Shown one piece after another: positions 26,541-56,775 of a DNA stretch of 64,000 nt. The stretch lies in the NCBI GenBank assembly GCA_030704615.1, contig CM060733.1:41664001-41728000 (forward strand), given 5' to 3'. Each line of letters begins with the position of its first letter. Position 1 is the first letter of the stretch. The stretch comes from Takakia lepidozioides. Taxonomy: Eukaryota; Plantae; Bryophyta. The notes beneath the pieces are model-generated. The model saw only the letters and a program-made list of their open reading frames with translations. It was not told where the DNA came from and searched no databases. The translations under genes were made by a program, and so were the position numbers.

Positions 26541-26723
26541 ATCTTTGACAGGGTTACGGTCCTCTTCGATCGGCTCTCAACAGTACTCTCAGACACCCTT
26601 TCAAGCTATACTCTCTCTTTCTTTATGACATAAAATAGTGCTTTCTAAGAAAAGAAGTAAACGAAATAAATAGACGGACACTAGTACAGCGGAAAAAGAA
26701 CGCTCGTAGAAGGGCCCATAACC

Positions 26724-33864: not shown

Positions 33865-33975
33865 TCCCTGTCCACAAGGGTATTGTTCAGAATGACATCT
33901 GCCACAATTCCAGCTTTGACGATGCAACCATGGACCTCTTTGCCCTTCCCCAGCAGGCTCGCACATGCACTACAA
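33865..33975 (-). pseudogene. PLS-class PPR fragment
   Basis: SACASLLGKGKEVHGCIVKAGIVADVILNNTLVD. Confidence 0.75.
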
Positions 33976-34948
33976 ACGCAAAAAAAACTGGTTGTGGCAA
34001 ACTGGGAGTAATATGTGTAAAAAGAAACCACTGATACAAATCTACAGCTTGCAGGTTGTCTCTATTCTCAAAATTGGCAGCACATCACCTGCTGCTATGA
34101 CATATATTGCCCTAGATACACATTGCCCTAACTGCCATCCCCCAAGATGCTACCCCCACCAGACTTCTCTCACTTGGGTCCTTGCAAGGCTGACTTCCAG
34201 CTTTGACTCTGTGCGTGGGGCCTATCAGACAACATATACCAGCAAGCCCTCCCCCTATCCTGCATCAACTCATCTCAGTCTTATCAACTGCACAACGTGT
34301 GATAGGAGTGAGTGCAACATGAGAAAGAGTCACAACACATGATGAGCTGTAGGGAAGAAGCAACATCGTGCAAGTAAAGCAAATGATGAAGCAGAAAGAC
34401 GAGGCAACATGGGAGAAGGGAAAATGGGGTCCAAGGGCTGAGAAGGTCAGCTGGTCAACAATGAGGAACTGGCTCTGGAGCACTATGTTGACGATTAAAG
34501 GGAGCAGCAAATACATGTGGGGCATCGCAGCAAAGTGCATGCCAACGAGGGTCAGAATAGTGCAAGAAAGACTCCACGGATGGTGGGTAGCCAAGGGAGA
34601 TGCAGTGAGACAAGGCACTCATGGCAAGGGAGCTGCCAAGACAAAACAGTTGATTAAGCTACGGAGAAAAAGGAAAGCACAAGATCAACTACGAGGGAAA
34701 GTAGACTTTTTGATCTAATTTAAATGTTTACAGAGCCTGGTTGGTCATATCTTTGTCAAATGAGCTCCATTTGACTCAGTTTTTGAGGGGATAGCTGCAG
34801 AAAGGGGAAATCTGGTTTTTGCTTTTGGGACTCTGCTAGAAATCTATGGAATTTTTAGAGTGTGAGTGTGCCATGAAAGATCCACAATCCTGTTTCTAGA
34901 ACCTGTTCTGGTCTACATGAGAGATAAATCTGGGGATGTATTCCTTGT

Positions 34949-35698
34949 ATGGCTGGGGGAAATGAGGACGTAATTGAAGGGCAGATCTCCTCTCTTAGCC
35001 TGTGCACCCAAGGGGACAAGATTTATGTTTCCCAAGGAACTCAGACTGATTTGAGTGAAGAACAGTTGGACGAGTTGATTGCATACTGGGAGTCAGGCAT
35101 TAGCAGTGGACAACAAAATGCTGTAGTTGGCGTTGAGGGCCTCAATATTGCCTTGGACAGTCAGAACTCTGTTGGAGCCAGCAGTTCTGCAGCTGTAAGT
35201 GAAATACCAAAGTGGGTGAAAGCTAGGCTTGGAACACAGCCAAAGACAGCCCCGGGGACCAAGGTGTTCAGCCACAAGGCTGTGGTGTATTGGAGTAGAG
35301 GAGCAGGAGCTACACAAGTTTGTGCAATCAGACAGCGTTGCAGCCGGACACGCTCTGCACAAGGCAACCACGAGCGGGGGTTCATTAGCGAGGACAAGTT
35401 TGTTCTGTTTGAAGGAGATGCAGTCATTCGCAATGAGGATACCCGTAACCGTCTCAAAGCTTTCGAGTTGAGAGACTATCAGACCCTACCTTTGTTTTCT
35501 TTAGTGTTCAGTGAGCGGGAGATAGCAGAGTGTTGCTTTGTCTCTACCTGGCAGAAAGAGGAGGAGGGTTGGTTAGAGCGAGCTACTGTAGCTTGGGACA
35601 AGGTTAGTGGCAGGTTTCTGGACATAGATATACCTCCTACACCTTACCATCATGCAGAGCGAGGCACTTTGAGAGAAGTCTGGCAGTTGATAGCATAG
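34949..35698 (+). CDS. Uninterrupted 249-aa ORF of unknown function upstream of gag
   Basis: ATG-to-TAG open frame with no recognised domain. Membership in the Gypsy element is inferred from position only. Confidence 0.4.
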   Translation: MAGGNEDVIEGQISSLSLCTQGDKIYVSQGTQTDLSEEQLDELIAYWESGISSGQQNAVVGVEGLNIALDSQNSVGASSSAAVSEIPKWVKARLGTQPKTAPGTKVFSHKAVVYWSRGAGATQVCAIRQRCSRTRSAQGNHERGFISEDKFVLFEGDAVIRNEDTRNRLKAFELRDYQTLPLFSLVFSEREIAECCFVSTWQKEEEGWLERATVAWDKVSGRFLDIDIPPTPYHHAERGTLREVWQLIA

Positions 35699-36318
35699 AT
35701 CAGGATTAGATCTTGCTTGGGCGGGCTTCTATTCTTCCCCTCTATCTCTGTACTATTTTCATTACCTTGTACTTGTAGTTGCCAAAGCCTCTCTTGGTGG
35801 AGGCCAGTCAGTCCGGGTTTTGGGCTGGGCTATTCTGCAGGATCAGCATTGCAGCTGGATTTTGGTGTGGGGGTGTTGATGTTTTGATTTTTTGTGTTTG
35901 GATCCCCCCCAACACCTGCATGCTTGACTGTGCGCCATGTTGGTTTTGTGTGGGCGCTTGCTTTCATAGGGATTAGGCCGGATTTGATCACCGGTCAATC
36001 CTAGAGTATGCTGTCGGTGGTGAGGCTGGAGTGATGACCAGCAAGACCACCAGTGTTTCTTCTGTGGTGAGACTGGGTTGATGACCAGCCAACCATAGGA
36101 GTTCTTGCGGTGGATGCAGGTGCAAGTGCCCTGAGCCACTGGCCCTGACCCTTAAACTGCAACAGGTGCCCACCCGTGTCACTATTAGAATTAGTACTAG
36201 AGCCTTATAGTGTCACGTGGGGGAGGTGCACATTGTTAGTGTCATCACGGAGTTACCCAAGGGTTTTGAGGGGAGTACGGCTACAGGTAGTAACAGTGAG
36301 AGTGGGTTCACAAGATGA

Positions 36319-37510
36319 GGTATTCGGTTCAGACCACCTTCACCTCCACCCTCAACTACTGTAGAGTCTGACACAGACCCGGAGGCTTCATCAACAAGTG
36401 TGCAGTTTGCTTCGCCATTGTTGTGGGACGACATGGAGGAGATGTATGGAGCTACCAAGGGGCCTCGTAGGTACTCTGGAGCTGTGGGCACAATCGAGCT
36501 GGATGACTTTATCCAGGAGTTCGACAGTTGGTGTGATTTGCAACAGATGCGCAATTCACAGCTGTTCACCCCATTCATGGCGTGGAAGGGATTGTTCCAG
36601 CATTTGGAAGGCCCGCCTATGGACGATTACCACGAGTTCAGGCAAGGACATGAAGCAAAAATTGAAGAGTGGAGGATGTATTGGTCACCTGACTATGTCT
36701 CCATTACTCGGGGAACAACACGACCAGTAGCGGCATCAGCACCAATACCTCCCACGGCTAGCATTAGTAGTGGAACAGGTAATGCCAGTACTTCTGCAAA
36801 AGGTGCTAGTACTCATCCTCCCACGACTACAACACATGTGCCAAGGTTCAGCCCGGTGGTGGAGTTCTTCCAGGAGTTGTGGAGGAACTACCAAGGTGTA
36901 CGGACTGAGAAGCTGCGAAGTTTGCAAGACTTCCAGCGCAAACCCAGTGAGAGCCTGCGAGAGGCGTACAGTCGTATGAGGCGCTTGATAAGTGTGACCC
37001 AAGGGGTTACTAAAGCTCAGGCAATCTAGTTTTGGTATGGAATTTTGGACAAGGAGCTCAAGAGAAGGGTGCGAGATGCAACCCTCTTACAAGCAGCCCA
37101 ACCCACATTAGCAGATGTGTTTCTGCTGGCTGAGCGGATTGAGCTCAACATGGTGGAGGAGCAAGTTGTTACCATTGGATTTGGCAAGGACATGCTTGCA
37201 CGAGGCGCAACTGCCAGCCCACAGGCACAAGGGACTGCCCAACAACGTGGTCAGGGGGGCAAGGTTGCCCAGCCCAAGTTCCATGGAGCTTACAGGGGAC
37301 CTCAGGTGCAGAGGTCCGTGGCATCTTTTGCAGGCCAACAGCAACCAAGGGTGATATATTGGACATGTGGAGGACCCCATGTCAAGAGAGATTGCCCAGA
37401 GAGTGGCAGAAGGCCGGCACAAGCACATCCTGCACAGTTGCAGTGTGGGCATTGTGGCAAGTATGGGCATGGAGATTTCCAGTGTTATGACTTGCACCCT
37501 GAGTTGCGCC
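36319..37510 (+). pseudogene. Gypsy gag (capsid-like region and two zinc knuckles), premature TAG at 37027
   Basis: LDDFIQEFDSWC, FQRKPSESLREAYSRMRRL. Knuckles YWTCGGPHVKRDC (first Cys lost) and CGHCGKYGHGDFQC. Frameshift at ~37510. Confidence 0.8.
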
Positions 37511-38761
37511 CAAAGAGGACGAGGTGGCCGGGCACGAGGTGCAGGCCAAGGGCAAGCTCAACATGGCCAAGGACGCGGAGGTCAGGGTGTTGACCAAGGC
37601 ATGGCCAACCGGCTTCACCAGCTAGAGCAGAGGCTCCCTGCCATGGCTATAGCTCAAGCAGTACCGGCTCCCGGGCGGGATGGTCCACCTCCTGTTCCTG
37701 AGGGAGGAGATATGGGAGGCATGGGATTCATGTGTGGAGCAGCGCTACCACTAGAGCAGGTGGAGTCTGCTGCAGCCGTGACTCGAGGAGCATCACGAGT
37801 CCCTGAGCCACGAGGTGCAGAGGTGGAATTGGATCCACAGTGTGGGGAGGCAAGCCGTCAGGCGAGGCTTTCTCAGTCATTCACATTGGCGGAGACTGTG
37901 TCGACGCCATCCATGGCACCTAGTTCTCGCCCGACTGTTACCGAGGCGGAGGTCACTATGCCATTGGGGAGAGCTACACGTGCAGCACTGACACCTGCTA
38001 CCAAGGCTAGTGCGGCCAGTGTGTTATTGGGGGCAGCCACCTCTGTGTGTCAAGCCCCACTGTTCTCGGCAACCATGATTGCGACGCCGGGAATAAGACC
38101 AGCTGCAGTGTTCAGACTAGCAGCAACACTCTGTGAGAGTGGGGAGGTCACTTCATCTTCTACGGAGTTAGTGGAAGGTGTAGTGGCAGAGGGATCCTCG
38201 GATTTGAGGGTCAAGACTGCCACGGCTGCGCCCTGGCAAGCTGCAGCTGCCAGATTGACGGAGCTGCCAGCTAGGCCAGCCTTTGAGCGCGCCATGGTGA
38301 CACTTGGAGTTGTCTTGTTAGACAACCATGAGGGCATTTTCTCATTGAGTGGACCGACAGGCAAGAAGTACTGGCCACTTCGGGTCTTGTTGGACTCGGG
38401 AGCTCAGCCACTGATGTTGGGCAGAGCTGCTATCACAGGTTTGGGCCTCATGGAGGCGGATATGGAGCCTTGTCCTTTCCAGATACAGACATCTATGGGA
38501 GGATCAGAGCAGGCTCGGGGCATGACACGGCGTGAGTTGGCCATTAGACTGCAGCCGGATCATCCTAGAGATGGCTCAGTGATGCGAGCCAAGGCCATTG
38601 TGACAGACGCGGTCTCTTACGATGTCCTCGTTGGTGGGGCAGTGTTATACCCCATGGGCTTCACCCTGGACTTTTGGGAGGAGTCAGCATCCTACAGGCA
38701 TGGATGGCAGTCAGGGGATGGTCGTCGTGCACAGCTCCCTGTGACATTCATTGGGGGTATT
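37511..38761 (+). pseudogene. Gypsy polyprotein linker and aspartic protease
   Basis: VLLDSGAQPLMLG, IQTSMGG, YDVLVG. The frame ends only because CACTAG supplies a TAG. Confidence 0.85.
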
Positions 38762-39725
38762 CACTAGTACAGAAACTGGTTTTTTTAACGGCTCTTCTCA
38801 CACATTTTGGTGTGAAAAAAGCGCAAGTTCACACCCCCCCTTGGTGGGTTAACCTAGTCCTTTGCACCACATGTGAACTTTCTTGGTCCTGTGAAAAAAA
38901 CCATCTCACACCAAACTTGCACCTGATGTGGCAGTAGGCTTAGGTGGCTCTTTTGACGGATATTTTGACGGTCGTTTTGACTGGTTAGTTCAACTACTAT
39001 TTTGACTAAGTAATCTTAATGGTCTTTCTACGGTACTTATTACACCTCGGCGCCACCATGTTTGCCACATGTATGTCAAAGGGAATGCCACGTAATAGAG
39101 TCCATCAGAATTATTAAATAAATAATAGATATTAAGGGCTCTTCTTACGGACTCTCTCACACAGATTTAACACCAGGTTCAAGTCGTGGTGTGATCGCAA
39201 TGACACTAGTGTGAATACTGTCACATCCACTGTTTTGTTCCTATTGGATGAAAAGTAAACAATTATTATTTGTTGACAAATGCCAAAATGAATAGTCATA
39301 TTATTATTATTATTATTCTTATAATAAATGGGATAGCACCCCAAAAGCCATTGGCTGCTTGATTTAATATGTAATATATTATTGTTTTAGAATTTTGATT
39401 TGTTTTGTTTCATTTAAACAAAAGCTTATTTAAAACATGGATAATAATTGTATTATGAACCACATTGACCAGTAGTAATGTTATTAATATTAAATATAGC
39501 AAACAACCAGCAAAATACCACATTCATGTCTACACAAGTTTAATTTGGCTTGATGTGGGAAAATGAAGTTGCCTTTGAACAAGGGGATCTTGTGATCATA
39601 CATGAGAATAGCAAGAGCATCAATTCAAAAAATATTGTTCATGTCAGAAGAGCAGTTTTGTTCACCTGTCTCAGCAACCTTCAATCCATAAAGAAAACTA
39701 AACTAAACTTGTAGCATCTTCAATA

Positions 39726-42700
39726 TCACGCGTGTTTAATAAACTTTTCAGACCATAAGGTGGCACTTCCCTGCGTGTCACCCAATGTGGTATGATTAGG
39801 GGTAACAGAGTAGTCCGGGTACGGCAACACAACCTCTGAAATCATGACCGATTTCACATGGATACGGTAATAGTTGTCTGGCACATTTGCTTTCGGAAAT
39901 CCAGCAATATATCCCACACCTGCCCTTCTTTTTGGTGCACAAGGATCAAACAATAACACCTTGTCGCCGATCTGAAACTGCAACAAAAACCAGATTCCTA
40001 TATCAGAAATGAACCCTGGAGAACAGAGACTGACAGCTTGGCACTCCTGCAAAATGCATCCTCGTTCTTCCAGCAAACACCCCAACCCTACCTATTGCAG
40101 TACTTCCAATTCTGAATTGCATTTGCCTGTCTCTATACTCCATGCTGACATGATCAAAGGTGGAACGGTGCCATACCTAGTTGATAGCAGGTTCTGCATG
40201 GTCAACATGGATGTGGTAGGACGATGTCACAAAACTACCTTTGTAGGTTGTCAATCCTGCAGCTACACAGCGATACATAGGGGGTGTATTGATCCAGCAT
40301 CAGACAAGGAAACAAAAGAGGACAAAGGAAGTACTTACACTGTGCGGATTTTGTTGGTCACCCCATGGTTCAGTTACATCCACTGTGGTTGTAGTCTGAT
40401 TGATAGCACATATTGTGCTTTCCCTGCCCATTGAACGCTTCACTGGTTTCACCATCTGCATATTGAATGACACATGATCAAAAAATGAGAATAGCACGAA
40501 TGACACACATTGTGAAGTAGCATTAACAATACAAATCCACCCACGCGCCCAAGCATTGAATCTTTTGCTCTCACCTTTCTTTGATTATGCTTTGTTGTTG
40601 CATCGGGAGGCAAAGTCGTTGGAACTCTGGCAGCAGGAAGCCCTGGTTCGGATGCCTTTGCAGATTGTTGTGATCCACTACCCATGGCTGCAGTATTGAA
40701 CAAGTAGTTGGGCTGCCCATATCTGTATGGGTGCCCTGACACATACTCAGGGATGTGTGCAGCCTTGGATACACCCTCTAACCAAGGCAGTAATTCTTTC
40801 ATAAGCCTCTTGCAGTTTGGCTGATCCCTCAACTTCCATGGATACGGGAAGATGCAATTATTTGCAGGGTTGGGTAAGCAAGTGAGTGGGGAATCGTCCA
40901 CCAGCAAAGTATTGGTTGGATTGTAATGGCTGTAGTCCTTCCAAAACTTACATAAGTTCTTGTACATGACAGTTTTAGAAGGATTGAGAGGGTCCACCAT
41001 TCCCACAGGTTGGTCACAATAGTCTTGGTGAAGCACCATCTTTGGTTGCTTCCCAGGAAACAATGCTTTCACAACTGGAAGGACATTACTCAATGACATG
41101 GAAGACCATACACCTACATCAAAAATCTGAAGGCATCGGTCCAGAAACTCCTGACACCCAGGTCTGGAGGTGACAGTGGGCTCTAGGTGTTCCCTTGTTC
41201 GTAGTCTGCTCTCACATAACAATCCATTCAAGTCAAGTATAAGGATGTGTTTCTGCCTCTCAGTTGCCGAAGGGCAATTACCAACAACTTGTACATGATT
41301 ATCATGTACAAAAGACACACCTTTCTGTGGGGCACTCTGCAAATTCATGGAGACCTCACAGGCATATTGAGAGGGTAGTACATATGCCGGAAGTGCTACT
41401 GGTGTAGGGGACAACAAAACGGATGAACACTTTGCAGTTGCCTCAACAATATGGGGGGATGGATTGAGTTCACCTTCAGACCAACCCTCCATGTCATCAT
41501 CCCCCTCCATTTCTGAAAGCCCAAACAATGAGCCTATTGTGTTTGGCTTTGGTGGCGGTGAAGAAACTGCCTTGAACAGGTTGAGTGGTGAGCCCATAAC
41601 ATGAGAAATAGTCTCATTTGTTGTGTGTGGCGCAAAGGTGGTGCATGGTGGACCTGTAGGTTCCGAATCTGGCACATTCATGCCAAGTTTAGCTGCGAGC
41701 GCAATGTTGAATGCAGCTGCTGCCTCCAGTTGGCCTTGGACTGCTTCCAAAGCTGCCTTGGAGCTGGCTTCCATCTGCACTTGTTTGTTTTCCATAGCAT
41801 CGAGGCGAGCTGCTAGTGAACCAATTCCCTGCCCCATCACATAGAACACCTCCAAAGTAACAATTCACTACACTGACTGATGAACTAGTAAGAAAACAGA
41901 ACCAAACGGCAACTAGCAATGGCATGGAAATCACGAATATGTAATTCACACCAGAATTGGTACTGAGTTTATATACCGTTGTGGCTGCACTGCCTGTACA
42001 CCCCGAGCCGTAGCCTTTGTCACTCCTGGCGCTACCGGCGATCTCCTGCAAACTTGGTGTACGTCCAGTCTCCTTCTCCTGTGATTGCAACAAACTTGCA
42101 AGTGTTAATGACTAGCATAGCACACTGCCAACAGTAAAGAATTATCTAGGATAGCGTCAATGACTCCCCCTCAATAAGAGTGCTTAGTTTCTTGCTGGCG
42201 CCCAACTCTGAGAAGGCCCCCAAGTAGTAGCAATGTGTACTAATTCAATGGTGATAGGAATAGACTCTGAGCTCCAGCCAAAAAAACCCAACACATAAAG
42301 TTTGTCAATGCAAAACAATGTGGGAACTTCCTATGTTGTAAGAGAAGTATACCAGTCGTGCTACAACACCGCTGATTCCACTGCGACCTGATCGAGATGT
42401 ATTCTTCACACATCCCCGCGCCTTGACACCATTTGCCTGAAATTTCTTGAAATCAGTGGAACCCCAACTAACAACTAGTTGTGCCCATGTCTTGTCTGGC
42501 ACATGATGGGGTTTGGGCAGCCCCACACTATAGTAATTTTTGAACAGCTTATTTCGTTGGTACTTGAGCTGCCCGCAAATTGTTTTTGTAATAGCCTTTA
42601 TGTTAAGACCAGGAGGTCCGTATTCCCAATCTGAAGCCAGGATCTCCATGATCTTTTCAATTAAGTGTAATGGTTGATCCTGAGCATACAATGACCAGTC

Positions 42701-45453
42701 CAACAAACGTTGACACTGCCCTCGCAGAGCTGTCATCCACTGGTTCCGAGCAGGACCTTCAGGGTTTCCAAGTTCATCACAAGAAATGAAAAATTTCCTC
42801 CTCCCTACAGCCACATTCTGAGCAGCCTGGTCTCTCAGATCTTTTGCAAGTGCCCTTCTTTCCCTCCTTAAAGCATTTTTGCGTTCTATAGGAGTCACAC
42901 CTGATGTCCCCCCAGGACTAAGGCTGGAATCCTGCAAGGTTTCAGCAGTACCATGCATGTTACCACCTTCACTCTGTTGGGGCTGGACTGCTGTCTCCCA
43001 CCCCACAGGATGATGCGGAGCAAATGCATCCTCGGTCTGTTTCAGAATGCCTTTCCCTTTCAGGGTATTAGGTGTACCTGGAGATGTTGGATAAAGAGGT
43101 GGCCGCGGTGCAGTGAAGCTCGAAGGTGCCGGCAGTTGTACTCCACTGTAGTTGGATCCTGAAGGTTGGTGGCCACCATACTGGACCTGCCCCTGGTGTG
43201 GTCTTGCAGGGCTGGTAGGATAGAGGGAGGAAGTAGGTTGGTTGTACATAGGCCGAGGAGGATACATACTATGGGGATGCATTCCATAATGGTGGTAAAT
43301 GGAATACCCACCTTGACTAGGATCATGCATTGGAGCGCCTGCAGGTGGAGCAAAAGAATTGTAATTCTGGCACTGAGAATCATTGTTTGGAGGTTGATAG
43401 TGAGGATACGGCATGTGCCCATGCAGATTATACCCTGACATGGCAGGATACTGTGGGTACATAAGCGGATACGAGGGAGGAGCCGATACTGGTGGATACA
43501 AGGGAGCTGGAACGTCAGTCTGTGGAGTGGGCGGGGCTGGTTTTTCGTAAGGGGGAACAACCGCGCCACTCATCACAGCAGTTGGCGCAATAGTTGGTGC
43601 ACACTTTGCTGGAGTAAGAGACTTATGCTCGTTCGCATCCTTCCCTGCAATTCCCTTCCTTTTTTTGACTGAACTCTGCACACATTGCTCAACAGAAACA
43701 TGTGAAACAATACGACCATACTACTAGGGATGGCAAACCACGTGGGTAAGCCAAGCCCAAAGGCCTATGCAAGAAGACCCTGTCAGTCAGACCTATGGTA
43801 CAGTCAGCTGAATCGCATGCCTCATACCAGCGACCCTATGATAAATACCTGAATATTAGGAAGGAAGAACTCACCCTGCTAGATGAATCTGACGTGGAGG
43901 CTGAAGTGTCTAAGGCCATGTCAAAAGCATGAAGAATGTCCGAACAAAACAATGTTAGGCATAAACTTCCCTGAACTCGTTTCCAGTTTGTGACATGGGT
44001 GAGGACTTTGAGGATGATCTGAAGGGCAGACCTACCCTTGGCACTAGACTGAAAATTTAACCTCCGGATGGGGAGTCTACCTTTGAACAATAAACAGATG
44101 CAGAGAGGAAAGGGAGATTGTCGATGCTCACTGGTGTGGGTGGCCTGAAGACAATGTCCATTTTGTGATACAAGTCTGGGGTATTCTCATCAGAGAGCGA
44201 CCCTCTTCAGGACCATCAAGAACATAGTCCCTGCACCTCTGTTCACCAACTATCAATATCTCAAGGCTGAGTCTAAAGCGGTGGGCCCTGTTGGGGTCTC
44301 ATTGCTTGGTAGCCCACATACAACAAAACTGATGAACGTGTGAAGGGCTTTCTAAAAGGAATCTGGAAAGCCTGAACTAATGTTTATAACACGGTAAGTC
44401 CTACTAATGGAGTGAGCCCCTCATTCTAATGGCAGACAGTTAATTAACTGTCTAGAAGATCTTCAGCTTTTCACCTTGAATATCAGGACAAGAGGTGACC
44501 AAGTGCAGTGGACTCGTGAGAAATCCCAAACTGGGGAACGCTCCATTGTGGATTATATCATAATGGACAAAAATTTGTTCCCCAAGTGTGCGAATGTGTT
44601 GATCGACAGAACTGATATTGCTACCTCTGACCAGTTCCTGGTTTGGAATGAGATCAAAAGGTGTTTTCCCAACACCAAGAGATATGTGAAACATTCGATT
44701 CGGAAGTGGCGCATAGAAAAACTTCATAATGAGGAGGTCAAGGTTGAGTATGTCCAGGCCTTGCAAGAGGCTCTCCCTCTCGATGCAATCGCTCCAAGAA
44801 CTTCAGTCTCGCTCTGATAACGCAAGAAATGAAGTCGAAAGAGCAGGGGACTCTTGGGAGAGTTTCGTTTCCTCCGTGGTTGACAAGATCATTGGGATGA
44901 AACTAATTGTCTGTGCTAGAGCTGTTAATTGGTGGACCAATGAGATTAAACTCAAGATAGCTGAGAGACGAGCCCTCTATAAAGAGTGCTGCAATTTGGA
45001 AACCAACAGAGAATTGTGGGCGAGGTACTACCAGCTCCGTAAAGATATCAATCAGCTTGTTAGGTCTCAGAACCCTAAATTATACTGGGACAAGTTATAT
45101 AGTGTTTGAAACTCGGAACTTTGGTGCAGATCGCAAACCTGCTGATGGGTTGGGGAGTTTGCAGGGTGCTTTGCGCGCTTTCTCTTTGTTGGGGCTTCTT
45201 TCATCGTTTCCATCTCTGACTCCGAGCTGGTCTCATTCAAGTCTTCATGTGCGGCATAATCTTGGTCTCGCTGCAATTCTTGCTCTCGTGCCTCCTCTGT
45301 GTCTGACTCCGCTACCACCTGCGCTTCCTCCTCTTGCTCTACCTCTTTCTCCCGTTGTGACATTGCAGAGTGCAGGAGTTGAACTCTGTGACTTCGGCGA
45401 GGAGGACCTGTGTGTTTGAGGATTTCCTCAACGAGGCGTTTAGGGCGACTCAA
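39726..45453 (-). CDS. Multi-exon CACTA accessory (TnpA-like) gene with an embedded FCP1/NIF HAD-phosphatase-like domain; exon structure approximate
   Basis: Pro-rich region plus WAQLVVSW...SRSGRSGISG (42305-43681). LILDLNGLL, RPGCQEFL, FDVGVWSS, NTLLVDDSP (~40740-41255). C-terminal En/Spm-type domain YYRIHV..V...LPYP...TLGD..G...LW (39726-39980). Joining these pieces into one gene is inferred. Confidence 0.6.
44470..45085 (+). mobile_element. LINE ORF2 remnant (end of APE endonuclease plus linker) in an intron of the accessory gene
   Basis: RSIVDYIIM...DIATSDQFLVW (SxIDY/SDH motifs) and WWTNEIK..IAERR, frameshifted. Confidence 0.7.
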
Positions 45454-45762
45454 TCTCGCTTCGACGCTGCAAAGAAGAAGAAGAAAGACAATGTCAGCAG
45501 CAGCAAAACCCTAACATATCCTCTCTGCAGGTTTGGAGCTTTTAATGCGGTTTCATGGCTAGGGCTAGGTAGGGCATATGAAAAAACGCAAGTTCGGACC
45601 TCTTTGCAATGTCGTAGATCTTCAGTCGTGCGAAGAATGCCTTGTTCTCCGCTTGACGCTTTGCTCGTTCTACCTCCCTCGCTGTAGGCTTGCGCCCTGG
45701 TGTAACTTCTGGACACTCTATGTCTGTCTCCATTTCCTGACGAGTCTCACTCAGTCGCCAAG

Positions 45763-48700
45763 ATGATCCCTCCTACTGCCCATCGATTGCAAAGGCGGAC
45801 ACAAGCAGAACATGACGATGACAGATTGTGGAAACTAGAGGAAGCGCGAGCAAGAAGACTGGGTCTTCGGAAAATTCTATGTCCATGCAATGCCTGTCAT
45901 GGTGGGAACTGGCAAACCATTGGCCGGGCTAAGCGTCATCTGCTTTTGAACTTGCGAGATCCTAACTTGCGAGAACTCCCGGTGCATATCTGTGGATTCT
46001 CTTCCCTTAACCCTGATGCATACTTTGAAATTATAAGAAACAGTTCAAATTCCTGGTATTGTTGTAAGGTGTAGAGTATTGTACATGCCCGTTTTCCTAT
46101 TGCCACGTGCCTGTATTATGGCACGTTCCACATCCACCATTTCCAACCCTAAACTCCCCATCTTATTGTGGATTGACATGTGGACTGATATGCTTATAAG
46201 CAGGAAAACTCTGGAGACGAACATGAGGGGTTTAGAACGGAAACCAGCCCTGCAGGTGGTCCTGATACCTTGGATCGTAATCTTGACATGCTTAGAATGC
46301 TCCGGGAGACATTCGCAACTACAGATAATGGGGTGCAAACTGGTGATGCACATGAGGAACCGGGAGATGGAACACAGGGCCAATGGGACACAGATGGAGT
46401 GCCAGAGCAGACTGATGGTGGACTGAAGAGCGATGGTGATCGTGGTGCAGCGAGTGCCTTACGTTTTGAGCAGGAGGCATCCAGGGCTTTGTATGTAGGG
46501 AGTTCTTCCTCTCGATTGTCTGCTACCTTACTGCTGTTAAATGCTTGTCAAACCCATGGTGTGTCAAACACCTTTGTCGATGAACTCCTTACATTGTTAG
46601 GAAGACAACTGTTGCCAGCAGACAATTGCCTGCCAAAGTCCCACTATGAGGCAAAACAACTCATAATGGAACTCGGGCTTCATTACAAGAGTATACATGC
46701 ATGTCCGAAAGGTTGTGTGTTGTTCAGAAGGGAGCTTCAAAATTTGGAGGTTTGTCCAAAATGTCAGGCATGTCGTTATGTGGTGGGTACGAAGACACCA
46801 GTACCTCGTAAGGTCCTTCGACATTTCCCTATCATTCCAAGGCTGCTTCGAATGTATAAAGCCAAATCCATCTCAGAGTTATTGTCATGGCACTTTAAGA
46901 ATCGAAGTTTGGATGGCTTGGTTAGGCGCCCAGCAGACAGCAAGGCTTGGGCCCACATTGACCAAAAATGGCCTGAGTTTGCAGCGGACCCCAGAAATCT
47001 GCGATTGGGTCTCGCATGGGATGGTGTCAATCCTTACAGTGATAAATCAAACAAATGGTCAACTTGGCCTGTCATGTTGATAAACTATAATCTTCCACCA
47101 TGGCTGTGTACTAAGCCATTTTTCACGATGTTGGCTTTATTGATTCCTGGACCACAATCTGTGGGAAATGACAATGCAGATGTTTATCTGCAGCCCCTTG
47201 TGGATGAGCTGAAATTGTTGTGGGAAGTTGGTGTGGAGGCATTGGATGGAAGTAGCCTAGTGGGGCAACAGTCATTTGCATGAGGGCCATCTTGATGTGG
47301 TCAATCCACGACTTTCCAGCTTATGGGTTGCTAGCAGGATGCGCACACGGGGGATACAAGGCCTGCCCAGCTTGCGGCCCTAATGTTGATTCCAGGTACT
47401 CCAAGGCATGCAAAAAAGTTTTGTATCTTGGTCATAGGAGATACTGCTATTCATCCCTATAGGAATAACTCGTCCCACTTTAATGGACATGTGGAACATA
47501 AAGCAGCTCCTATGGTGATCACTGCAAGTGAGCAATTTGACCGGGCTACAACCAGAGAGTTGTATCTCACAATGGGAGGGGCTGAGGGGGGAAAACTGGA
47601 CCCTTCAAAGGAACATGGCATGAAACGGGTCACTGTTTTGAAGCAATTGCCATACTGGAAAGACTTACTCATCCGATACACACTGGATGTGATGCATTGT
47701 GAAAAAAATTTGTGTGAGAATGTGCTGAGAACCATTCTTGGGGAGAAGGACACAGCCACATCTAGGAAGGATATGGAACTCAATGTCATTCGTGAACACT
47801 TGTGGTTGAGACCCCATCCCTCTCACCCGAACAAGTTGGTCAAGCCTTTGGCCCCATATGTTCTTACTGAAGATGAGAAGGTGCTGTTTTTGGAAACATT
47901 GGCTGCAGTAAAGGCCCCCACAGGTTATGCTGCCACATTCCAGAAACATGTGGCTGACAATAAACTGTCTACAATGAAAACCCATGACTACCATGTAATG
48001 ATGCAGCAGATTTTACCTCTTTGCATTCGAGGGGTATTGGGAAAGGGTCCACGGATGGCAATTATGAGGCTTTCTCGAGTCTTCCAAAAAGTGTGTGCAA
48101 AGATCATTAATCCAGCTGAGGTACCGGCCTTAAAAGAAGATGTTGCAATCACTATGTGTCTGCTGGAGAAAGAATTCCCTCCGTCATTTTTTGATATCAT
48201 GACTCACTTGCTTGTACACCTTGTGGACGAATTGGAGGTGTGTGGTCCCGTGTCTAGCCGTTGGATGTATCCTATGGAACGGTATATGAAGACATTAAAA
48301 GGCTATGTAAGGAATATGAGCCGACCTGAAGGGAGCATGGCGGAAGGGTATGCTTTGGATGAGGCCCTAGGGTTTCTAACTGAGTATATGGCTGAATTTC
48401 ATGCTACAAGCCGAAGGGTGTGGGACTCCAATGAAGAAGACTCAGTTAGTGGGGAGGTGGTTGAAGGATTGGGAACTGTACGAGTCCTCACCATTCAAGA
48501 ACGAGACAGTGCACACAAGTATATTTTGCACAACACAGATTGCATGAAACCATTCCTTGAGTAAGTATGTTGCTTATCATATCCTGTGTGTTTCATTTCT
48601 GCCAATGGTATAAGCTGTAATCCTAATTTGCAATTCTCATTTGGATAGGGCCTATGAAGAGGAGATGGCACTCATAGAAGCATCCCGCACTGAGTTCAGA

Positions 48701-49561
48701 ACAGCATACCTTTGTGGACAAGACCAAGACCACCACAATGGAGAAATTCCATACCCAACAGATATGCGCTTACTGGCTCCATTCCATGAATGGATTGAAG
48801 GTGCTGTCCAACGCAAGGTGAGTTCAGGTGAGTTCTATGATTTGGACATATGCCATTTATGTATACCACCAGCAGTACAGTCATTGGGCTTCAAGTCCAT
48901 GTATGCTTACGGCAATCACTTTCGAGCAATAAGTGATGGGACTGGCGCCAGAGACAGGGTGACATTTGATTCTGGAGTTGCTCAAGTATTCCATCAGGAA
49001 AGCGAAAACAGAGCAGGTATGTCCAGACGAGTGTTATCCCAATTGGAATATGTGGGTGTTGTAAGAGAAATAATTCAACTGGATTACGGAATTCTTCACC
49101 CAATTCTGTTCTTGTGTACATGGGTGAGGTCACACATGGTGGGCCGGAATGCCACCATGAAACGAGATGATTATGGCTTTCTCTTGGTTGACTTCAGTCG
49201 CATGTTGCCTGGGATGGAGCAGCCCTGGACATTCCCTAGTCAGGTGGAGCAAGTTTTTTTCTCGGATGAAAAAAGTTCACGAGGGAACTGGAAGGTGGTC
49301 CTTCACAAGGACCCTCGATCCCGACGAGTGGTTCACGATATTACAGAAGTGGCACTGGGTGAGGGAGACATTTATGTAGGCATGGTGCCTCCTGAAATTC
49401 CTCATAACATCATGACTGAGCTTGTTGTTTGTGTTCCTTTGAGTGAGGCAGATGAATTGGCCATTGCCAACTTGAATGCACCTGCAAGGCAGAGGCGAAA
49501 TGGTAGAAGGCGGAGGCAAGCTCCACATGGGAGGTACCAAGCCAGTTGTGCTATGGTGTAG
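45763..49561 (+). pseudogene. CACTA transposase (TnpD/Tnp2-like) with frameshifts at ~47280 and ~47450; introns ~45983-46203 and ~48561-48648
   Basis: CPCNAC, IHACPKGC, RNLRLGLAWDGVNP, STWPV..YNLPPW, DVYLQPLVDEL, HDFPAYG, LDVMHCEKN, PPSFFDIMTHL, RWMYPMERYM, YVRNMSRPEGSMAEGY, SQVEQVFF. Confidence 0.93.
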
Positions 49562-51160
49562 AGTTGGTTTCTGCTATTGCATGTACTTTTCCAGGGTTTA
49601 GACTTGATACAGCATGGTACCTTCCATGGGTGGGAGTGACTGAGCTGTTGGGGTGGGCAGAATTCTGACAAACACACTTTCATTTGTGACAGTGAACCCT
49701 AAACAGTCATGAAGCTGTGGCATGAATACTTTTCTGACCCTAATCAATGGTGGCCCAATTGTGGGAAAAAGGTGAATGCATGTTGGATTATAGAGAGTAG
49801 CAGATGCAATTGAGCATAGGAACTAGTGTGAGAAGTTGAGTTGGGTGTTTCCTTGAACAAATGTAGGCTGTTATTGTCAGTTGCTACCAGCAAGCAAAGA
49901 TGTATGCATGATTTGTGAGAGGCATGGATAGCTGAAGGAGCAGGGATAGAGTGTGGGTCCAGATTCATCCAAGAGGGCCACATTTCAAGCACAACATTGC
50001 CTATGATTCCTTGTGGAAGGATTGGTACAAGAAACCTGCATGGGTAGATGGTCAACTGGAAGCCGCAGCAGCAGCGGCACAATTGGTAAAATCAGGCGAT
50101 GAGGGCACCTTCTTCAACACATTTCAGCCTGTTTTTCCCCCTTATCACAATCGGCCCTAAATTTCCATGTTGAATTATGCAAGTTAGCTGGTTGACTGAA
50201 TCTTTGATAGATTGGAGTGACTTTGACATGATACTGCCAATGTGACAACAGGAAAGTATCCAGAAACAGGTACAAGAGATGAGGAGAAGGTGTGGAATGA
50301 ATACTTTTCTGATTTGGTCAAGTTTAGGGAGTGTTCAACACCATGGCTGAACAAGATGTGGTGTGTGGAGCGCGATGCTTGCAGGATGTGCACAGCAGTG
50401 AATGGGATGGAGCCTTTGAATTGCTGAATTGGCCATTGCCAACTTGAATGCACTTACAAGGCAAAGGCGAAATGGTAGAAGGCGGAGGCAAGCTCCACAT
50501 GGGAGGTACCAAGCCAGTTGTGCTATGGTGTAGAGTTGGTTTCTGCTATTGCATGTACTTTTCCAGGGTATACTTGATACAGCATGGTACCTTACATGGG
50601 TGGGAGTGACTGAGCTGTTGGGGTGGGCAGAATTCTGACAAACACACTTTCATTTGTGACATTGAACCCTAAACAGTCATGAAGCTGTGGCATGAATACT
50701 TTTCTGACCCTAATCAATGGTGGCCCAATTGTGGCAAAAAGGTGAATGTCTGTTGGATTACAGAGAGTAGCAGATGCAATTGAGCATATGAACTAGTGTG
50801 AGAAGTTGAGTTGGGTGTTTCCTAGAACAAATGTAGGCTGTTATTGTCAGCTGCTACCAGCAAGGCAAGGATGTATGCATGATTTGTGCAGAGGCATGGA
50901 TAGCTGAAGGAGCAGGGATAGAGTGTGGGTCCAGATTCATCGGTGAGGGCCACATTTCAAGCACAACATTGCCTATGATTCCTTGTGGGAGAATAGCTAC
51001 AAGAAACCTGCATGGGTAGATGGTCAACTGGAAGCCGCAGCAGCAGCGACACAATTGGTAAAATCAGGCAATGAGGGCACCTTCTTCAACACATTTCACC
51101 TTGTTTCTCCCTCTTATTAGAATCGGCCCTAAATTTCCATGTTGAATTCTGCAAGTTAGC
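49454..51160 (+). repeat. Direct duplication of ~735 bp (49454-50188 and 50426-51160), each copy holding the transposase tail and an OSB-type PDF cassette
   Basis: Closely similar copies beginning gaattggccattgccaacttgaatgcac. Spliced peptide LWHEYFSDPNQWWPNCGKK|IHPRGPHFKHNIAYDSLWKDWYKKPAWVDGQL. Confidence 0.85.
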
Positions 51161-51174
51161 TCGTGGTGGACACA

Positions 51175-51520
51175 TGTATAGCAAATGTGGGAGCACTGAG
51201 GATGCGTGTTCAACACTATGGCTGAACGAGATTGTGCGTTTGCAGTGCGTGTGCAAGTCTGGCAGCTTTGGATGCATCACCAAAGTTGGAATTGTAACAG
51301 ATGCGATCCAAATGTGGGGAGCATCAAGGGTATGCCAAATGCCTCATATGCCAAATGTGGGAGCATCAAGGGCAAACCTGGCAGCTCTGGAAAAATGGAA
51401 GAGGTCCATGGCTTCATTGTCAAAGCTGGAATTCTACCTGATGTGATTCTGAACAATGCCCTCGTGGACATGTATGCCAAATGTGGGAGCATCAAGGATG
51501 CGAAGGCAGTTTTCCAACAC
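51175..51520 (+). pseudogene. PLS-class PPR fragments
   Basis: MYSKCGSTEDA, YAKCGSIK, VHGFIVKAGILPDVILNNALVDMYAKCGSIKDAKAVF. Confidence 0.85.
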
Positions 51521-52509
51521 TATGGCTTTTGGAGGCCCTCAGTAGACGAGTTGAAAAGCACTAGTTAAAAAGCACTGGCGCTTGATAGGGTGGGGCAAAA
51601 TTCAGGCTGGGGTGATCATTGATATCTCGGATGCAATGTAAAAAAGACGGTTGTGAGTGAAGGACACCCGTAGCAAAAAAACCCTGTTGTCTCAAAAAAA
51701 GAGGCAGTCACAAAGAGCAAGGCACTTTGTCCAAGCTTCTCGAATCTAGCAACAATGTGGACAGGGATTGAGTCATTGGGAACAATTTATGTAAGGTGGC
51801 GAAGAAAACCTTGTCTGAGGATCACTGGATATTTCTCTAGTACGGTTGGACTAGTAGAGATTGAAATCCGTGCTCAGCTCAGCTTCAAACTGTCTCATTG
51901 TGAAGGGTCACGGTTGACTGGACAGAAATGGGATTGACATTGTCGGGCTCCCAAATCTCTGAGACGACATGTGGTAGTTTTATCTATAGCTTCTCAAAGC
52001 AATTGTTTTACATTGTTCATTATAGTGTGACATTCTCATAACGATATTGTCGTCAGCTGCATGAGCAGTGCATCTTTTTGGATTGTTGGTCCCCATAACC
52101 CTAATAACCTTTTTGAACTTTTTAAATTCTCTAAACAAAAGTCTATGTGTTATGTCGTCCAGGGCATGTTGAATAGAGGTGGAAGTCATTTTATCCATCC
52201 ATCTTCCACCTGGATGGTCAATGTGCCACGCCATATAGTTGCCCCAAATTCCTATAGGACATCTGACACTCACCTCACACTCCATGACTCATTTGACACT
52301 CATGTCAAATGCCCCATATGAATTATCTTGGTCAACATCTGTTGACCGTATGGGTGTCATTCGAGTGTGAAATTTGTAACACCATGTGGCTTTTCCTACA
52401 ATGATCCAAATCACACCTTGCCTCGTCTCACATGGGTGTAAGAAGAGCCGTTCAAAGTGCCAGGTGTGAACTATGGGTGGTGTTGGAAAACCCGGTTTCT
52501 GTAGTAGTG

Positions 52510-54105
52510 ATTGCGACTGCCCAGCGGGGCAAGATACCAACACTAGCCGCCTTTACAGCTGCAGTTAGTTGGCCTGGAGAGTTGCTGGAGGGCAATGCCC
52601 ATGCAGAGGATGTGCCACCTCCAGCAGAGCAGGATGACATGCATGGTATGGCGGAGTTGCCTGCCATGGTTGCTCACACTCCATTGAGGGGTACGAGCAA
52701 GGATTTGCAGCAGGGTGCTGATGGACGGGTACAACAAGCTTGGGTAGAAGCTTTCGTACCGTCAGGAGAGGGGGAGAGTGCGGTGATTGCACCAGGATCA
52801 CCCCAGTTGTTGCCATTGGACACCACACCTCTTGTGTGGCAGCGCCTGGATGAAGGCATATGCCTTCTGGACTTGTTTGGCGGGATCAACACTGGATTGG
52901 CTGCAGTGCTGCAGGCAGGTGTACGAGTTCGACGTTACCTGTATGTGGAGAGGGATGAGACTGCACGACGCGTCTCACTGCGCCATGTGGCTCAGTTGGT
53001 ACAGCAGTACCCTGACTTGTTGCCTGTGTCTGCAGTTCGTGGATACCAACAAGCCTTGCCAGCAGACATTTCCTTGTTGGGGGCGCAGGATTTGGAGCAG
53101 GTTGGCTCCATTGATCTGATAGTGGCAGGTTGGCCCTGCCAAGGGCATTCATCAGCCGGGCATGGCAATGGATTGCGAGACTCAAGGACGGGTCTATTTT
53201 GGGAGATGGTGCGGGTTTTGCGCCACTTGCAGCTTCATCAAGCTGTATCTCCAGCATACATCTTGGAGAATGTGCCACTGATGGGTGATTCTCGGGCCAA
53301 GGTGATGGCCAGTGTGCATCAAGTCCGGTCGTGGCTTGGGTCAGCAGTGTTGTTGGATGCAGCTGCAGTGGGGTCACGGGCTCATCGTCCACGGCTTTGG
53401 TGGACTAACTTGATGCCACCCGCACTGCTCAAGCGTGCATTTGATGGGGTGCAGCGGCCAGCACACCTCACCGTGGATGGCATTTTGGACACGGGGAGGC
53501 AGTCTCAACGTGTGAGACACGACGACCGTTCGCCTTTGGTAGTGGTCAACAGGGTGGGTCAACCACGAGCAGCATTACCTATACTGCTCAGCTTCCCAGG
53601 ATCCCATGCTTTTCGGGATGGTGGACCTGGCCTCTTGTGGGATAGCCAGTTGCAACAGTTAGTGGAGCCTAATGCCGACGAGCGAGAGCGGGCTATGGGA
53701 TTTTCCACTGGGACCACGGCGGTGCCTTCTCTTTCTGAGGCATCACGTCGTCAGGTGTTGGGGCAAGCAATGGATCTCAATTGCTTGACCTGGATTATCA
53801 GCTTGGCTATGGCTGAGCAACGTAGAGTGCGGAGTGCACTTCCCTTGACGGTCTCTCTGCCTACTGAGACGGTACAGGCAGCGAGTGGGGGCGAGTCGGT
53901 GAGGACCACGGGGTGTAGACATCCATGGCACACGTGGGAGGTGCTCGAGGTTCAGAGGGAGTTGGCAGCCAAGGCAACTGTGATGGATGAGGTTGGGGAT
54001 TCTTCTCGGGATGAGGAGGTTCTCAATGATGAGATGATGGGGCATGATGAGGCCTTGTCATTGATTGAGCAGGAAGGGAGTACTGCTCAAGAGGTTGCAG
54101 CATAG
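52510..54105 (+). CDS. C5 cytosine DNA methyltransferase domain (DNMT3-like) of the Gypsy polyprotein
   Basis: Motif I LLDLFGGINTG, IV DLIVAGWPCQGHS, VI YILENV, VIII AHRPRLWWTNL, IX ERERAMGF, X RRQVLGQAM. The order is canonical and the domain has no internal stops. Confidence 0.92.
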   Translation: MATAQRGKIPTLAAFTAAVSWPGELLEGNAHAEDVPPPAEQDDMHGMAELPAMVAHTPLRGTSKDLQQGADGRVQQAWVEAFVPSGEGESAVIAPGSPQLLPLDTTPLVWQRLDEGICLLDLFGGINTGLAAVLQAGVRVRRYLYVERDETARRVSLRHVAQLVQQYPDLLPVSAVRGYQQALPADISLLGAQDLEQVGSIDLIVAGWPCQGHSSAGHGNGLRDSRTGLFWEMVRVLRHLQLHQAVSPAYILENVPLMGDSRAKVMASVHQVRSWLGSAVLLDAAAVGSRAHRPRLWWTNLMPPALLKRAFDGVQRPAHLTVDGILDTGRQSQRVRHDDRSPLVVVNRVGQPRAALPILLSFPGSHAFRDGGPGLLWDSQLQQLVEPNADERERAMGFSTGTTAVPSLSEASRRQVLGQAMDLNCLTWIISLAMAEQRRVRSALPLTVSLPTETVQAASGGESVRTTGCRHPWHTWEVLEVQRELAAKATVMDEVGDSSRDEEVLNDEMMGHDEALSLIEQEGSTAQEVAA

Positions 54106-55359
54106 CAACCATGGGACGCGTCCTCTACCTCTAAGCCCACTGGACTTAAGGTTGCAGTTACGGAGGACAATTGGGAGCCTGACATTGGACCCATTGTCAC
54201 CGGAGGAGAGAGACGACGTATACGGCGGTTCCTGAGGGCTTACAGGAATTGCTTTGCCTTCAGTTTGAAGGACTTGGGAGCACTGAAGGGTCAAGAGATC
54301 CGTATTGAGTTGGCCACTGACATGCCAATCTTTCGGAGACCCTATAGATACAGTGACATGGAGAGGTCTTTGATTCAGATGAGGACTCAAGATCTCTGGG
54401 AGGCAGGTTTGGTGGAGCTTTCTGGTGGAGAGTATGTTTTAGCCACAGTGATGCCAGCCAAGAAGGATGTCTATGGCAATTGGACGGAGAGACGTATGTG
54501 CGGTGATTACCGGCCTGTAAATCGTCAGACCAAGTCTGATAGGTATGCCATGCCGACACCAGAGGAGATCTTTGATGCCATTGGGCATTCCAAGGTCTTT
54601 AGCACGTTGGATTTACGATCCGGATATCACCAGTTGCCAATCAAGGAGGCTAATAAGCAAAAGACGGCATTCTGGGGGATGAATGAGCACGAGAAGGATT
54701 GCCTATACCAGTGGCGGTTCTTACCATTTGGGCTTAAAAACGCTCCCGCTGAGTTTCAAAGAGTCATGGACAGGATTCTAGCAGGGGTGGAGTTTGCTCG
54801 GTGCTACATAGATGATATCATCATCTTTAGTGCTACGGTGGAGGAGCATGAGAGACACCTTCAGGGGGTATTTGAGCGCTTGAGGACGCACGGATTGAAG
54901 TTACATCCGGGCAAGTGCAAGTTTTTCCACAACCAGATTGAGTATCTGGGTCACATGATATATCCTGGAGGATTGGGGGTACAGCAGACTAAGGTAGAGT
55001 CCATTGCACAAGTTCCACGCCCCACGGATGTGAGCCGAGTTCGAGCTTTCATGGGGTTAGCAAACTATTACAGACGGTTTGTTAAGGGATTTAGTGCCAT
55101 TGCAAAGGCTCTAACCAAGCTGACCAAGGTGGACCAAGAGTGGCAGTGGGAAGATGAGCAAGAACAAGCTTTTCAAGAGCTCAAGGTGAGGTTGACCTCG
55201 GCGCCCATCTTGAGACGACCTATCAGGGGGCGTCTTTTTCAGCTGCATACAGATTGGAGCATGCTGGGGCTTGGAGCGGTGCTCACACGGGTGGATGATG
55301 AGGGAAGAGAGTTCGTAGTGGCTTATGCTAGCCGCTCAAACAATGCTGTAGAGTCTAAG
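54106..55359 (+). pseudogene. Gypsy reverse transcriptase and truncated RNase H
   Basis: YRNCFAFSLKDLG, MCGDYRPVN, LDLRSGYHQ, LPFGLKNAP, YIDDIII, FMGLANYYRRF, LHTDWSMLGLGAVL, VAYASRSNN. Same frame as the DNMT, separated by one TAG. Confidence 0.95.
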
Positions 55360-55500
55360 ATTGTGGCAGACTACTTTATTGTGCATATATGTGTGGTGTG
55401 GTTTGGACAGCGATGTAGTTGTGTAGCGATACGTATGCGCACGACAGTAACTTTGATGTTATTGAGAAATTGAGTATGGCTCCCAAAGAGGGTTTAGCAC

Positions 55501-56018: not shown

Positions 56019-56775
56019 TCTCTCTCTAAGTGCAAAAAGTAGAAAACCGCAGTGACTCCCGATTTCTTGCGGGATTGCATGCGTTGTTGCTTGTCTCTAG
56101 AAGCATCGGATTCCCTCTCGCGTGACCGTTACACATAGTCGTTCCCTTATTAGTGCACATGCCAGCAATTGGTGTACAACTGTTCGTATTCAGCTATGGA
56201 TGTCTGACGTGTGTCGCCCAAAATAAACGGCGTGTTCTTTCTTAGAACGGTTTCAATATTTAAAAATAACAGCGAATCCCAGAAATCTTGGCGCGCAGTC
56301 TTACACAAATAAATGTAAATGAACGAGAGTTTGATGACAAATTTTGGAATATCATACACGGTCATCCTTGTTAGCCAAACCCCACATTCGTTTCACATTT
56401 GGAACTTTCTAGGTGCGCATGATCATTGGTAGTAGTATAAAGATACATTTACTTAATCTGCAATCCCATCCTCAGATCCTGTGGCATGCTTCCAGGAAGT
56501 CGGCTTTGTTATTGGGTTTATTGATGAGATTTTGATTAACGGTTTAACAGCTGCCGACGCTGCTCCTAGGGATACTCTGACCACTGGGCCCACAAGAAAA
56601 GTAATTAAAATGGACGGCTGCATATCTGGAAAGAATAACATAATATGCACAGTCGTTGTCTGAGCTTCCTCCGCCATATTCTCTGCTCATTCTTCAACTG
56701 TGTTCTGGAGACATCAGTAAACCGATTTACACTAGATCTGCGATAACAAGGTATAAACGTACGCGAGGAAAGAAG

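Follow-up and report, generated by a model that had tools for sequence, protein, structure and literature searches.

The 64,000-nt stretch of Takakia lepidozioides contig CM060733.1 (positions 41,664,001 to 41,728,000; GCA_030704615.1), hereafter the window, contains a decayed copy of a bryophyte family of Ty3/Gypsy retrotransposons that carries a DNMT3-like domain. The window copy has the order Gag, protease (PR), DNMT3-like C5-methyltransferase (DNMT), reverse transcriptase (RT) and partial RNase H (RH), and it is interrupted by a 13.7-kb CACTA transposon. We propose, with a probability of roughly 65%, that elements of this family consist of a first open reading frame (ORF1) for Gag-PR-DNMT, a UAG-CAR-YYA signal, and a second frame (ORF2) for RT-RH-integrase (IN)-PHD finger, which would be reached by occasional readthrough, and that the DNMT likely methylates the element's own cDNA. 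The new features are a conserved readthrough-type stop that places the methyltransferase on the Gag side, and a palindromic junction between terminal repeats. The following parts of the element were located in the window.

35977-36006, plus strand: conserved 30-nt motif of the 5' leader of the element (96.7% identity to L089:8501-8530)
36319-37590, plus strand: gag, the opening part of ORF1, containing zinc-knuckle-like Cys/His motifs (weak PF03732; 45-61% identity to the uninterrupted P0069 and P0075)
37355-38761, plus strand: Gag linker and aspartic protease with LLDSGA (DSG at 38393-38401), similar to P0016
52513-54102, plus strand: linker, DNMT3-like C5 cytosine methyltransferase (PF00145; core 52837-53841) and variable tail, the end of ORF1
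54100-54114, plus strand: predicted type I readthrough signal GCA-TAG-CAA-CCA-NNG at the ORF1/ORF2 border, conserved in 38 loci
54106-55359, plus strand: ORF2, encoding reverse transcriptase (YIDD) and the N-terminal portion of RNase H, truncated by a deletion (PF00078, PF17919, PF17917)
55360-55446, plus strand: terminal repeat B, which ends in ...CACGACA and closes the element on its 3' side (alignable with B of L037)

The first-pass annotation had taken the TAG at 54103-54105 for an incidental stop within a single PR-DNMT-RT-RH pol. The codon is in frame with RT, with no frameshift, as had been claimed; however, it is a conserved feature of the family and not a product of decay, and the DNMT belongs to the Gag-PR frame. 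The survey included 54 element loci and the window, and 39 loci held the DNMT-before-RT junction (38 anchored on the RT N-terminus by tblastn, plus L050). An in-frame stop was present at the homologous site in 38 of the 39 (TAG in 29, TAA in nine). Over these 38 loci, the first position after the stop was C in 37, and A at +2, a purine at +3, pyrimidines at +4 and +5, and G at +9 occurred in every locus; position +6 was A in nine, C in 28, and T in one. The exact CAR-YYA was found in eight of the nine loci outside the Sphagnum-type family, the window included (CAACCA, CAGTTA, CAATCA). The residues encoded after the stop varied (QPW, QPV, QPM, QLE, QSP, QSQ) and the linkers diverged, while the nucleotide motif remained constant. 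As controls, the CAR-YYH-NNG context was found in 0 of 39 decay stops, and CARYYA in 18 of 6969 in-frame hexamers. Contigs of the window family (1031 in run X1 and 1229 in run X2, both from one sample, with Logan contig depth not equal to copy number) gave 15 substitution rows of at least 1% over 141 nt; none fell at 54101-54111, although the site was covered, and no variant of at least 1% was listed there in four runs. Since the stop is conserved together with a readthrough motif, ORF1 is Gag-PR-DNMT and ORF2 is RT-RH-IN-PHD. It is scarcely credible that the TAG arose by decay of a single pol, or that the DNMT is a one-off neutral capture. The window copy does bear other decay lesions, and single-ORF relatives exist (P0100, P0110, P0382), but the stop is common to lineages with saturated dS, no variant of it is listed within the window family, and dN/dS of the DNMT is well below 1.

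The same boundary was observed in proteins and in complete frames. Among the 37 best long DNMT relatives, 24, including Marchantia and Calypogeia proteins, ended 53-139 aa past the DNMT core, where the window TAG is located. Locus L033 consists of exactly two abutting frames, one of 1369 aa from stop to stop and one of 1047 aa, with one codon between them. The downstream frame is also 1047 aa long in L035 and L089, and in L033 and L089 it encodes RT-RH-IN-PHD (PF00628 PHD finger). In the window, the ORF at 54106-55473 (455 aa) matched RVT_1 (E 2e-32) and RT_RNaseH_2. The first Met of ORF2 was found at residue 116 in L033, L045, and L089, which falls after the RT start (residue 74), at residue 72 in the window, and at residue 47 in L005, with a range of 2-116. 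A reinitiation event or a separate mRNA for ORF2, with the stop as a true terminator, is highly improbable: most Sphagnum-type loci carry an ATG in frame two codons downstream of the stop, and an early Met is present at residue 4 in L027 and 13 in L035, but there is no conserved ORF2 start, and the CAR-YY-NNG context would be left unexplained, the real ORF2 terminators (in L033, L035, and L089) being TGA followed by purines.

In plant viruses, UAG-CAR-YYA constitutes the type I signal for readthrough (PMC2754532, PMC11166343); the tobamovirus motif includes an xxG third codon (PMC3159437), and readthrough at the tobacco mosaic virus (TMV) motif is 6-10% in Arabidopsis (PMC2754532). With the type I systems (TMV replicase, benyviruses, pomoviruses), the family shares the UAG, CAR-YYA, the xxG third codon, and a polymerase downstream in frame; the window has UAG with CAR-YYA, and the in-frame coding region downstream is long in relatives (L033, L035, and L089) and has no conserved start. 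Unlike the viral cases, the family is a nuclear retrotransposon with a predicted signal, and its Sphagnum-type branch departs from the motif at +6. Judged from this context, ORF2 is very probably produced by programmed readthrough of the UAG. Retroelements with an in-frame stop are known (MuLV, Tj1, Tosmo1-3, bioRxiv 2022.12.06.519325; Tca2, SIRE1, PMC2194720), and as in them, one stop would set the ratio of the upstream structural product to the downstream product. However, their stop is described between Gag and PR-RT-IN (or pol/env), whereas here PR and the enzyme cargo lie on the abundant side.

We also considered splicing of the stop out of some transcripts, as in the Ogre (Tat) elements, which likewise have GAG-PROT in ORF1 and RT-RH-INT in ORF2 (PMC6317226). 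Four NCBI gene models (P0006, P0007, P0011, P0038) join DNMT to RT and skip the stop region; however, they skip four different stretches, as a gene finder would around a stop, and the sole listed joint across the stop skips 37 nt in one contig. An unspliced X7 contig that spans the stop was given no weight, since this run is RNA only by conjecture. The ORFs of Ogre are ~274 bp apart, whereas those of the present family abut with one codon between them; in addition, the frame is retained across lineages despite differing linker lengths, and the conserved nucleotides are those of the readthrough motif. This explanation is thus improbable. Ogre, as described in the same source, also differs in its ~270-bp intron, additional RNase H, and ordinary LTRs, and in the lack of a DNMT and a PHD finger, and ORF2 of our family has one RNase H region. 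No chromodomain, which would mark a chromovirus, was found in ORF2 of L033 and L089; a PHD finger is present instead.

A structure downstream of the stop was predicted tentatively.

54116-54219, plus strand: predicted 3' stem-loop, ~10 nt past the stop (minimum free energy z -2.4)

Values of z from -2.4 to -4.0 were obtained for four of seven junctions and values near 0 for the other three. For each of the two main clades, a stem was predicted to lie 10-18 nt downstream of the stop, with unrelated sequences forming it. Covariation in the stem-loop was not above that of shuffles (54 of 500 as high), and no two-sided change was found in the second clade.

The methyltransferase itself was identified in the ORF at 52405-54105 (566 aa, ending with the TAG), which matched PF00145 above the cutoff (E 2e-13). 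The motifs follow the canonical order within one ORF, with what we take to be motifs I (LDLFGG), IV (GWPCQ, 53134-53142), VI (ENV, 53266-53274), VIII (AHRPRLWWTNL), IX (ERERAMGF), and X (LGQAMD). A phmmer search of PDB sequences gave DNMT3A as the best match (E 3e-9), followed by DNMT3B and then by DRM2 and HhaI. The AlphaFold2 model had a core mostly at pLDDT 85-95 with disordered flanks, and its best Foldseek matches were DNMT3A/B (DNMT3A E 4e-17, TM to target 0.73-0.81 with catalytic-domain chains). The DNMT3-type domain with PCQ, ENV, and AHRxRxWWxNL reported in the first-pass annotation was thus recovered by sequence and by fold. The catalytic domain of animal DNMT3A/B is the closest in both respects and has an equal motif order, although identity in the structural alignment is ~20% and the window DNMT has no PWWP or ADD domain. 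The window DNMT is intronless, is not rearranged as in DRM, and retains the key residues. Of the 26 stop-type proteins with a full core, all retained PCQ and ENV, and 25 retained AHRxR. Motifs and fold suggest that the enzyme is probably active.

Selection on the domain was estimated as dN/dS by the Nei-Gojobori method. Three between-lineage DNMT pairs were saturated, and the eight estimable pairs gave 0.065-0.18 (0.14 at dS 0.25 for L033/L027); RT gave 0.046-0.068 between lineages. In five pairs of decayed Sphagnum-type copies, the values were 0.39-0.55 for DNMT and 0.30-0.48 for RT. The DNMT is under purifying selection, and neutral or one-off capture, named beforehand as an outcome that would have undone the claim, is rejected by these values together with the family-wide occurrence of the domain.

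Comparison with other plants confirmed the land-plant host proposed earlier: the best named matches of three LTV1 exons in the window were Sphagnum and Ceratodon, followed by liverworts and then by vascular plants, which points to a bryophyte and probably to a moss. The Ty3/Gypsy assignment likewise held, with RVT_1 and RNase H domains in the window and full RT-RH-IN-PHD in relatives. Named relatives of the DNMT were found in Calypogeia fissa (75%), Marchantia polymorpha (up to 76%, many models), M. paleacea, Riccia sorocarpa, and Sphagnum spp., on chromosome-scale contigs. It is virtually certain that the family is real and occurs in land plants. The suggested extension of the lineage into embryophytes therefore stands for bryophytes but not beyond them, as no vascular-plant name was present among the named DNMT matches listed. 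A literature search, which reached few subscription journals, returned no account of bryophyte DNMT-bearing Ty3 elements or of the conserved stop. Two sources (PMC12344493; bioRxiv 2026.05.21.726589) speak of "streptophytes" and do not name land plants, copies from which may be included in the supplementary trees.

The closest described system is KnitGypsy-Dnmt3 of Klebsormidium nitens (de Mendoza et al., 2018; PMC5890265), in which the DNMT is encoded in a single ORF together with RT and RNase H and the repeats are DIRS-like (A-coding-B-A-B). Both systems have the Ty3/Gypsy domain set of PR, RT, RH, and DDE integrase (full RT-RH-IN-PHD in L033 and L089), an intronless non-rearranged DNMT3-related domain under purifying selection (Ka/Ks < 0.2 for KnitGypsy-Dnmt3), and the A-coding-B-A-B layout, complete in L037. 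The bryophyte family differs in the UAG-CAR-YYA that parts Gag-PR-DNMT from RT and in its land-plant host, KnitGypsy-Dnmt3 being compared by its description. Since DNMT and RT do not share a single ORF, we did not file the family as a member of KnitGypsy-Dnmt3; it is a derived relative that works like it. Other retrotransposon-borne C5 methyltransferases, namely SymbioDIRS-Dnmt3, which methylates CG de novo in yeast, SymbioLINE-Dnmt (both PMC5890265), and EpiLTRs (bioRxiv 2026.05.21.726589), are described from other retroelement classes or with a DNMT4-related enzyme, and in algal or protist hosts.

A profile search yielded 465 clusters at 50% identity (E up to 1e-30). Among the best 150 of them, the commonest multi-domain order was RT-RH-DNMT-IN-PHD (32 representatives), named once as Scenedesmus, and the DNMT-before-RT order was named as Closterium. 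Diverse Ty3 polyproteins with the DNMT between RNase H and integrase were represented by P0387, P0504, and L047 as well as by these 32. It seems that DNMT3-like Gypsy elements extend to chlorophytes and that the domain can occupy a second position. On the DNMT tree (a quick run from which 13 of 90 candidates were dropped as partial), the window DNMT grouped with liverwort and Sphagnum-type proteins (support 99). On the RT tree (two of 36 sequences dropped), all DNMT-before-RT elements, the Closterium element among them, formed one clade (99); the stop-type clade (SH-aLRT 90) was nested within it, with the single-ORF P0100, P0110, P0382, and P0500 outside the stop-type clade. This nesting among single-ORF elements makes the stop look derived, and it appears from the quick, midpoint-drawn tree that the stop was gained once in a single-ORF ancestor. 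No sequence named Klebsormidium was found among the matches listed. A search of viral contigs gave 17 weak methyltransferase matches (24-45%). L089, a near-complete element, comes from a contig of a cyanobacterial metagenome-assembled genome, and the family protein P0130 bears the name of a bacterial (Obscuribacterales) DNA cytosine methyltransferase; in both cases, DNA of a eukaryotic transposon was most likely assigned to a bacterial genome during binning. The clade of L033, L035, and L089 has AT-rich repeats and, as compared with L016-type loci, ORFs that are uninterrupted or nearly so.

According to the proposed mechanism, most ribosomes would end at the UAG and release Gag-PR-DNMT, and a minority, from a few to tens of percent as with the TMV motif in plants, would read through and add RT-RH-IN-PHD. 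PR and DNMT would then be about as numerous as Gag, with some 5-20 copies for each RT-IN. Inside the particle, the DNMT would be released by the protease, and there the enzyme may mark cytosines of new cDNA before integration; the methylated insertion would arrive resembling host heterochromatic or "self" DNA, and the PHD finger of the integrase may read chromatin at the target. We give even odds to the element's own cDNA being the main substrate of the DNMT. Alternatively, with the same two-ORF readthrough, the DNMT may act mainly in trans, targeting host chromatin or, in a self-limiting form of silencing, older family copies, or serve as a nucleic-acid-binding part of the particle. A high dosage of ORF1 would fit a trans or structural role as well as one in cis, and host-benefit and trans options were listed by de Mendoza et al. 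(PMC5890265). However, a purely structural role is at odds with the retention of catalytic residues in 25-26 of 26 proteins, and the Gag-PR fusion would put the DNMT in the particle where cDNA forms; we regard the trans role as doubtful.

A number of observations weigh against the reading of a readthrough element whose DNMT methylates its own cDNA. The CpG observed/expected ratio of the element (0.42-0.56) was not below that of neighbouring host DNA and other transposons (0.33-0.83), so that composition gives no signal of self-methylation; this lack of extra CpG loss would also suit a role in trans. The same applies to the KnitGypsy DNMT, which produced no methylation in yeast, a result that its authors call inconclusive (PMC5890265). 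As for the stop, 29 of the 38 loci belong to one Sphagnum-type family, with duplicates across assemblies, and only about seven independent lineages are represented. The Sphagnum-type stop is followed by CAA-CCC or CAA-CCT, off consensus at +6 in 29 of 29, nine of which have TAA, and mostly by the in-frame ATG mentioned above. L025 has a sense codon at the stop site, and L024 has TAG-TAG-CCA. The Marchantia and Calypogeia copies are known as proteins, and the stop context was read from the DNA of other loci. The trees, from quick IQ-TREE runs and drawn from the midpoint, were built without host DNMT3/DRM or named Klebsormidium sequences. Finally, the window copy is dead, having a gag stop, a frameshift, the CACTA insertion, and a 3' deletion.

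The window copy retains repeat B only. In run X1, 39 contigs exit at its end (55446) into dissimilar flanks, and 35 proceed at 55447 into a TGTCA start. Repeat A at the 5' end was not found; a search with the A-start of the family gave only chance-level matches within the window. The complete layout was observed in L037: target-site duplication (TSD)-A (1679-2017)-coding-polypurine tract-B-GC-A-B-TSD, with TG...CA ends and the TSD AAGG. A 3' B-A-B was found in L018 and L052, A...B-A in L002, and a short A-coding-B form with a perfect TSD in L019. The B-A junction is a palindromic ACA-GC-TGT in L002, L035, L037, L089, and, as assembled from loose ends, the window family; L018, L033, and L052 depart from this palindrome by one base. 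TSDs of 4 bp matched in three of the four loci with both ends, and at three of four bases in the fourth. No TGG-type primer site was found after repeat A in the repeat layouts read.

A staggered cut across CA-GC-TG in circular cDNA would produce two CA-3' ends with 2-nt overhangs, the form used by retroviral integrases. A two-repeat circle would then give the long form (A-coding-B-A-B) and a one-repeat circle the short form (A-coding-B). Opening of the circle at the B-A junction would thus account for both forms, each with 4-bp duplications; the short form is also explained by B-B recombination. The full scheme, in which the leaky stop would load the DNMT at capsid-level copy number, the cDNA would be fully methylated before insertion, and the DDE integrase would open the circle at ACA-GC-TGT, is speculative and rather unlikely in its entirety.

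Transposons that carry an enzyme normally used for silencing them are on record from algae and protists. The presence of the family in Marchantia and mosses, where methylation mutants and transformation are available, makes the question of their purpose testable. The conserved leaky stop suggests that selection raised the dosage of the methyltransferase from that of RT to that of Gag, a shift that limits the roles the enzyme can have. The ORF1/ORF2 stop also explains the annotation of such copies as free "DNA methyltransferase" genes or false spliced models, which inflates bryophyte DNMT counts. The split repeats with their palindromic junction, together with the TSDs of 4 bp, may point to a mode of integration that DDE retroelements do not usually follow.

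In the window copy, gag is broken by a decay stop at 37027-37029, the site of which is open in five of five loci matching the local motif, and by a frameshift near 37520. The protease shares 46% identity over 168 aa with the Asp_protease_2 region of P0016; the frame at 37355-38761 alone had no Pfam match. A deletion at 55359/55360 joined the middle of RNase H to the 3' repeat and removed the end of RNase H, the integrase, and the PHD finger; contigs of other copies stay in RNase H past 55359, and relatives run on through integrase and PHD. Directly 5' of the leader, a 256-aa ORF (34928-35698) without a Pfam match was observed.

The PR and DNMT frames are separated by an element distinct from the retrotransposon.

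38762-52509, no strand assigned: inserted 13.7-kb CACTA DNA transposon with terminal inverted repeats, Transposase_21, DUF4218, and DUF4216

It begins with CACTAG at 38762, right after the protease frame (...VTFIGG-ATT, ending at 38761), and ends with ...GTAGTG at 52509; the reverse complement of its right end, CACTACTACAGAAAC, matches the left end, CACTAGTACAGAAAC. The flanking ATT is duplicated (38759-38761 and 52510-52512). The first-pass proposal that excision of the CACTA element joins PR and DNMT in frame was borne out in three ways: both flanking frames are broken on a codon boundary (469.0 and 36.0 codons), an insert-free contig in run X7 passes from the protease end directly to 52513, and in relatives PR and DNMT lie in a single frame without the insert.

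Additional frames of the CACTA element include a NIF-like phosphatase ORF (40449-41864, minus strand; PF03031, E 9e-18) and a proline-rich ORF (42305-43720, minus strand). It also contains PPR fragments (~51075-51568), LINE-endonuclease-like pieces recognized by eye (44416-45109), and a ~970-bp tandem duplication (49453-51164). An inverted copy (84-93%) of its region 49711-51470, itself internally duplicated, lies outside the element at 32740-33940.

Elsewhere in the window, host genes were found at 210-21666, namely an LBP/BPI-family protein, the second-largest subunit of RNA polymerase (minus strand, many exons), and LTV1. No tRNA was detected in the window by ARAGORN. Direct repeats of 96-98% (23436-27419) surround a Ty1/copia-like RNase H fragment recognized by eye (23690-24481, minus strand). 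Two related (~76%) long-ORF elements at 27844-30532 and 56644-60284, in which a weak C-terminal SWIM finger was the sole Pfam match, are probably Mutator-like transposases. The region 60900-63600 is occupied by an array of 116-bp units with internal palindromes.

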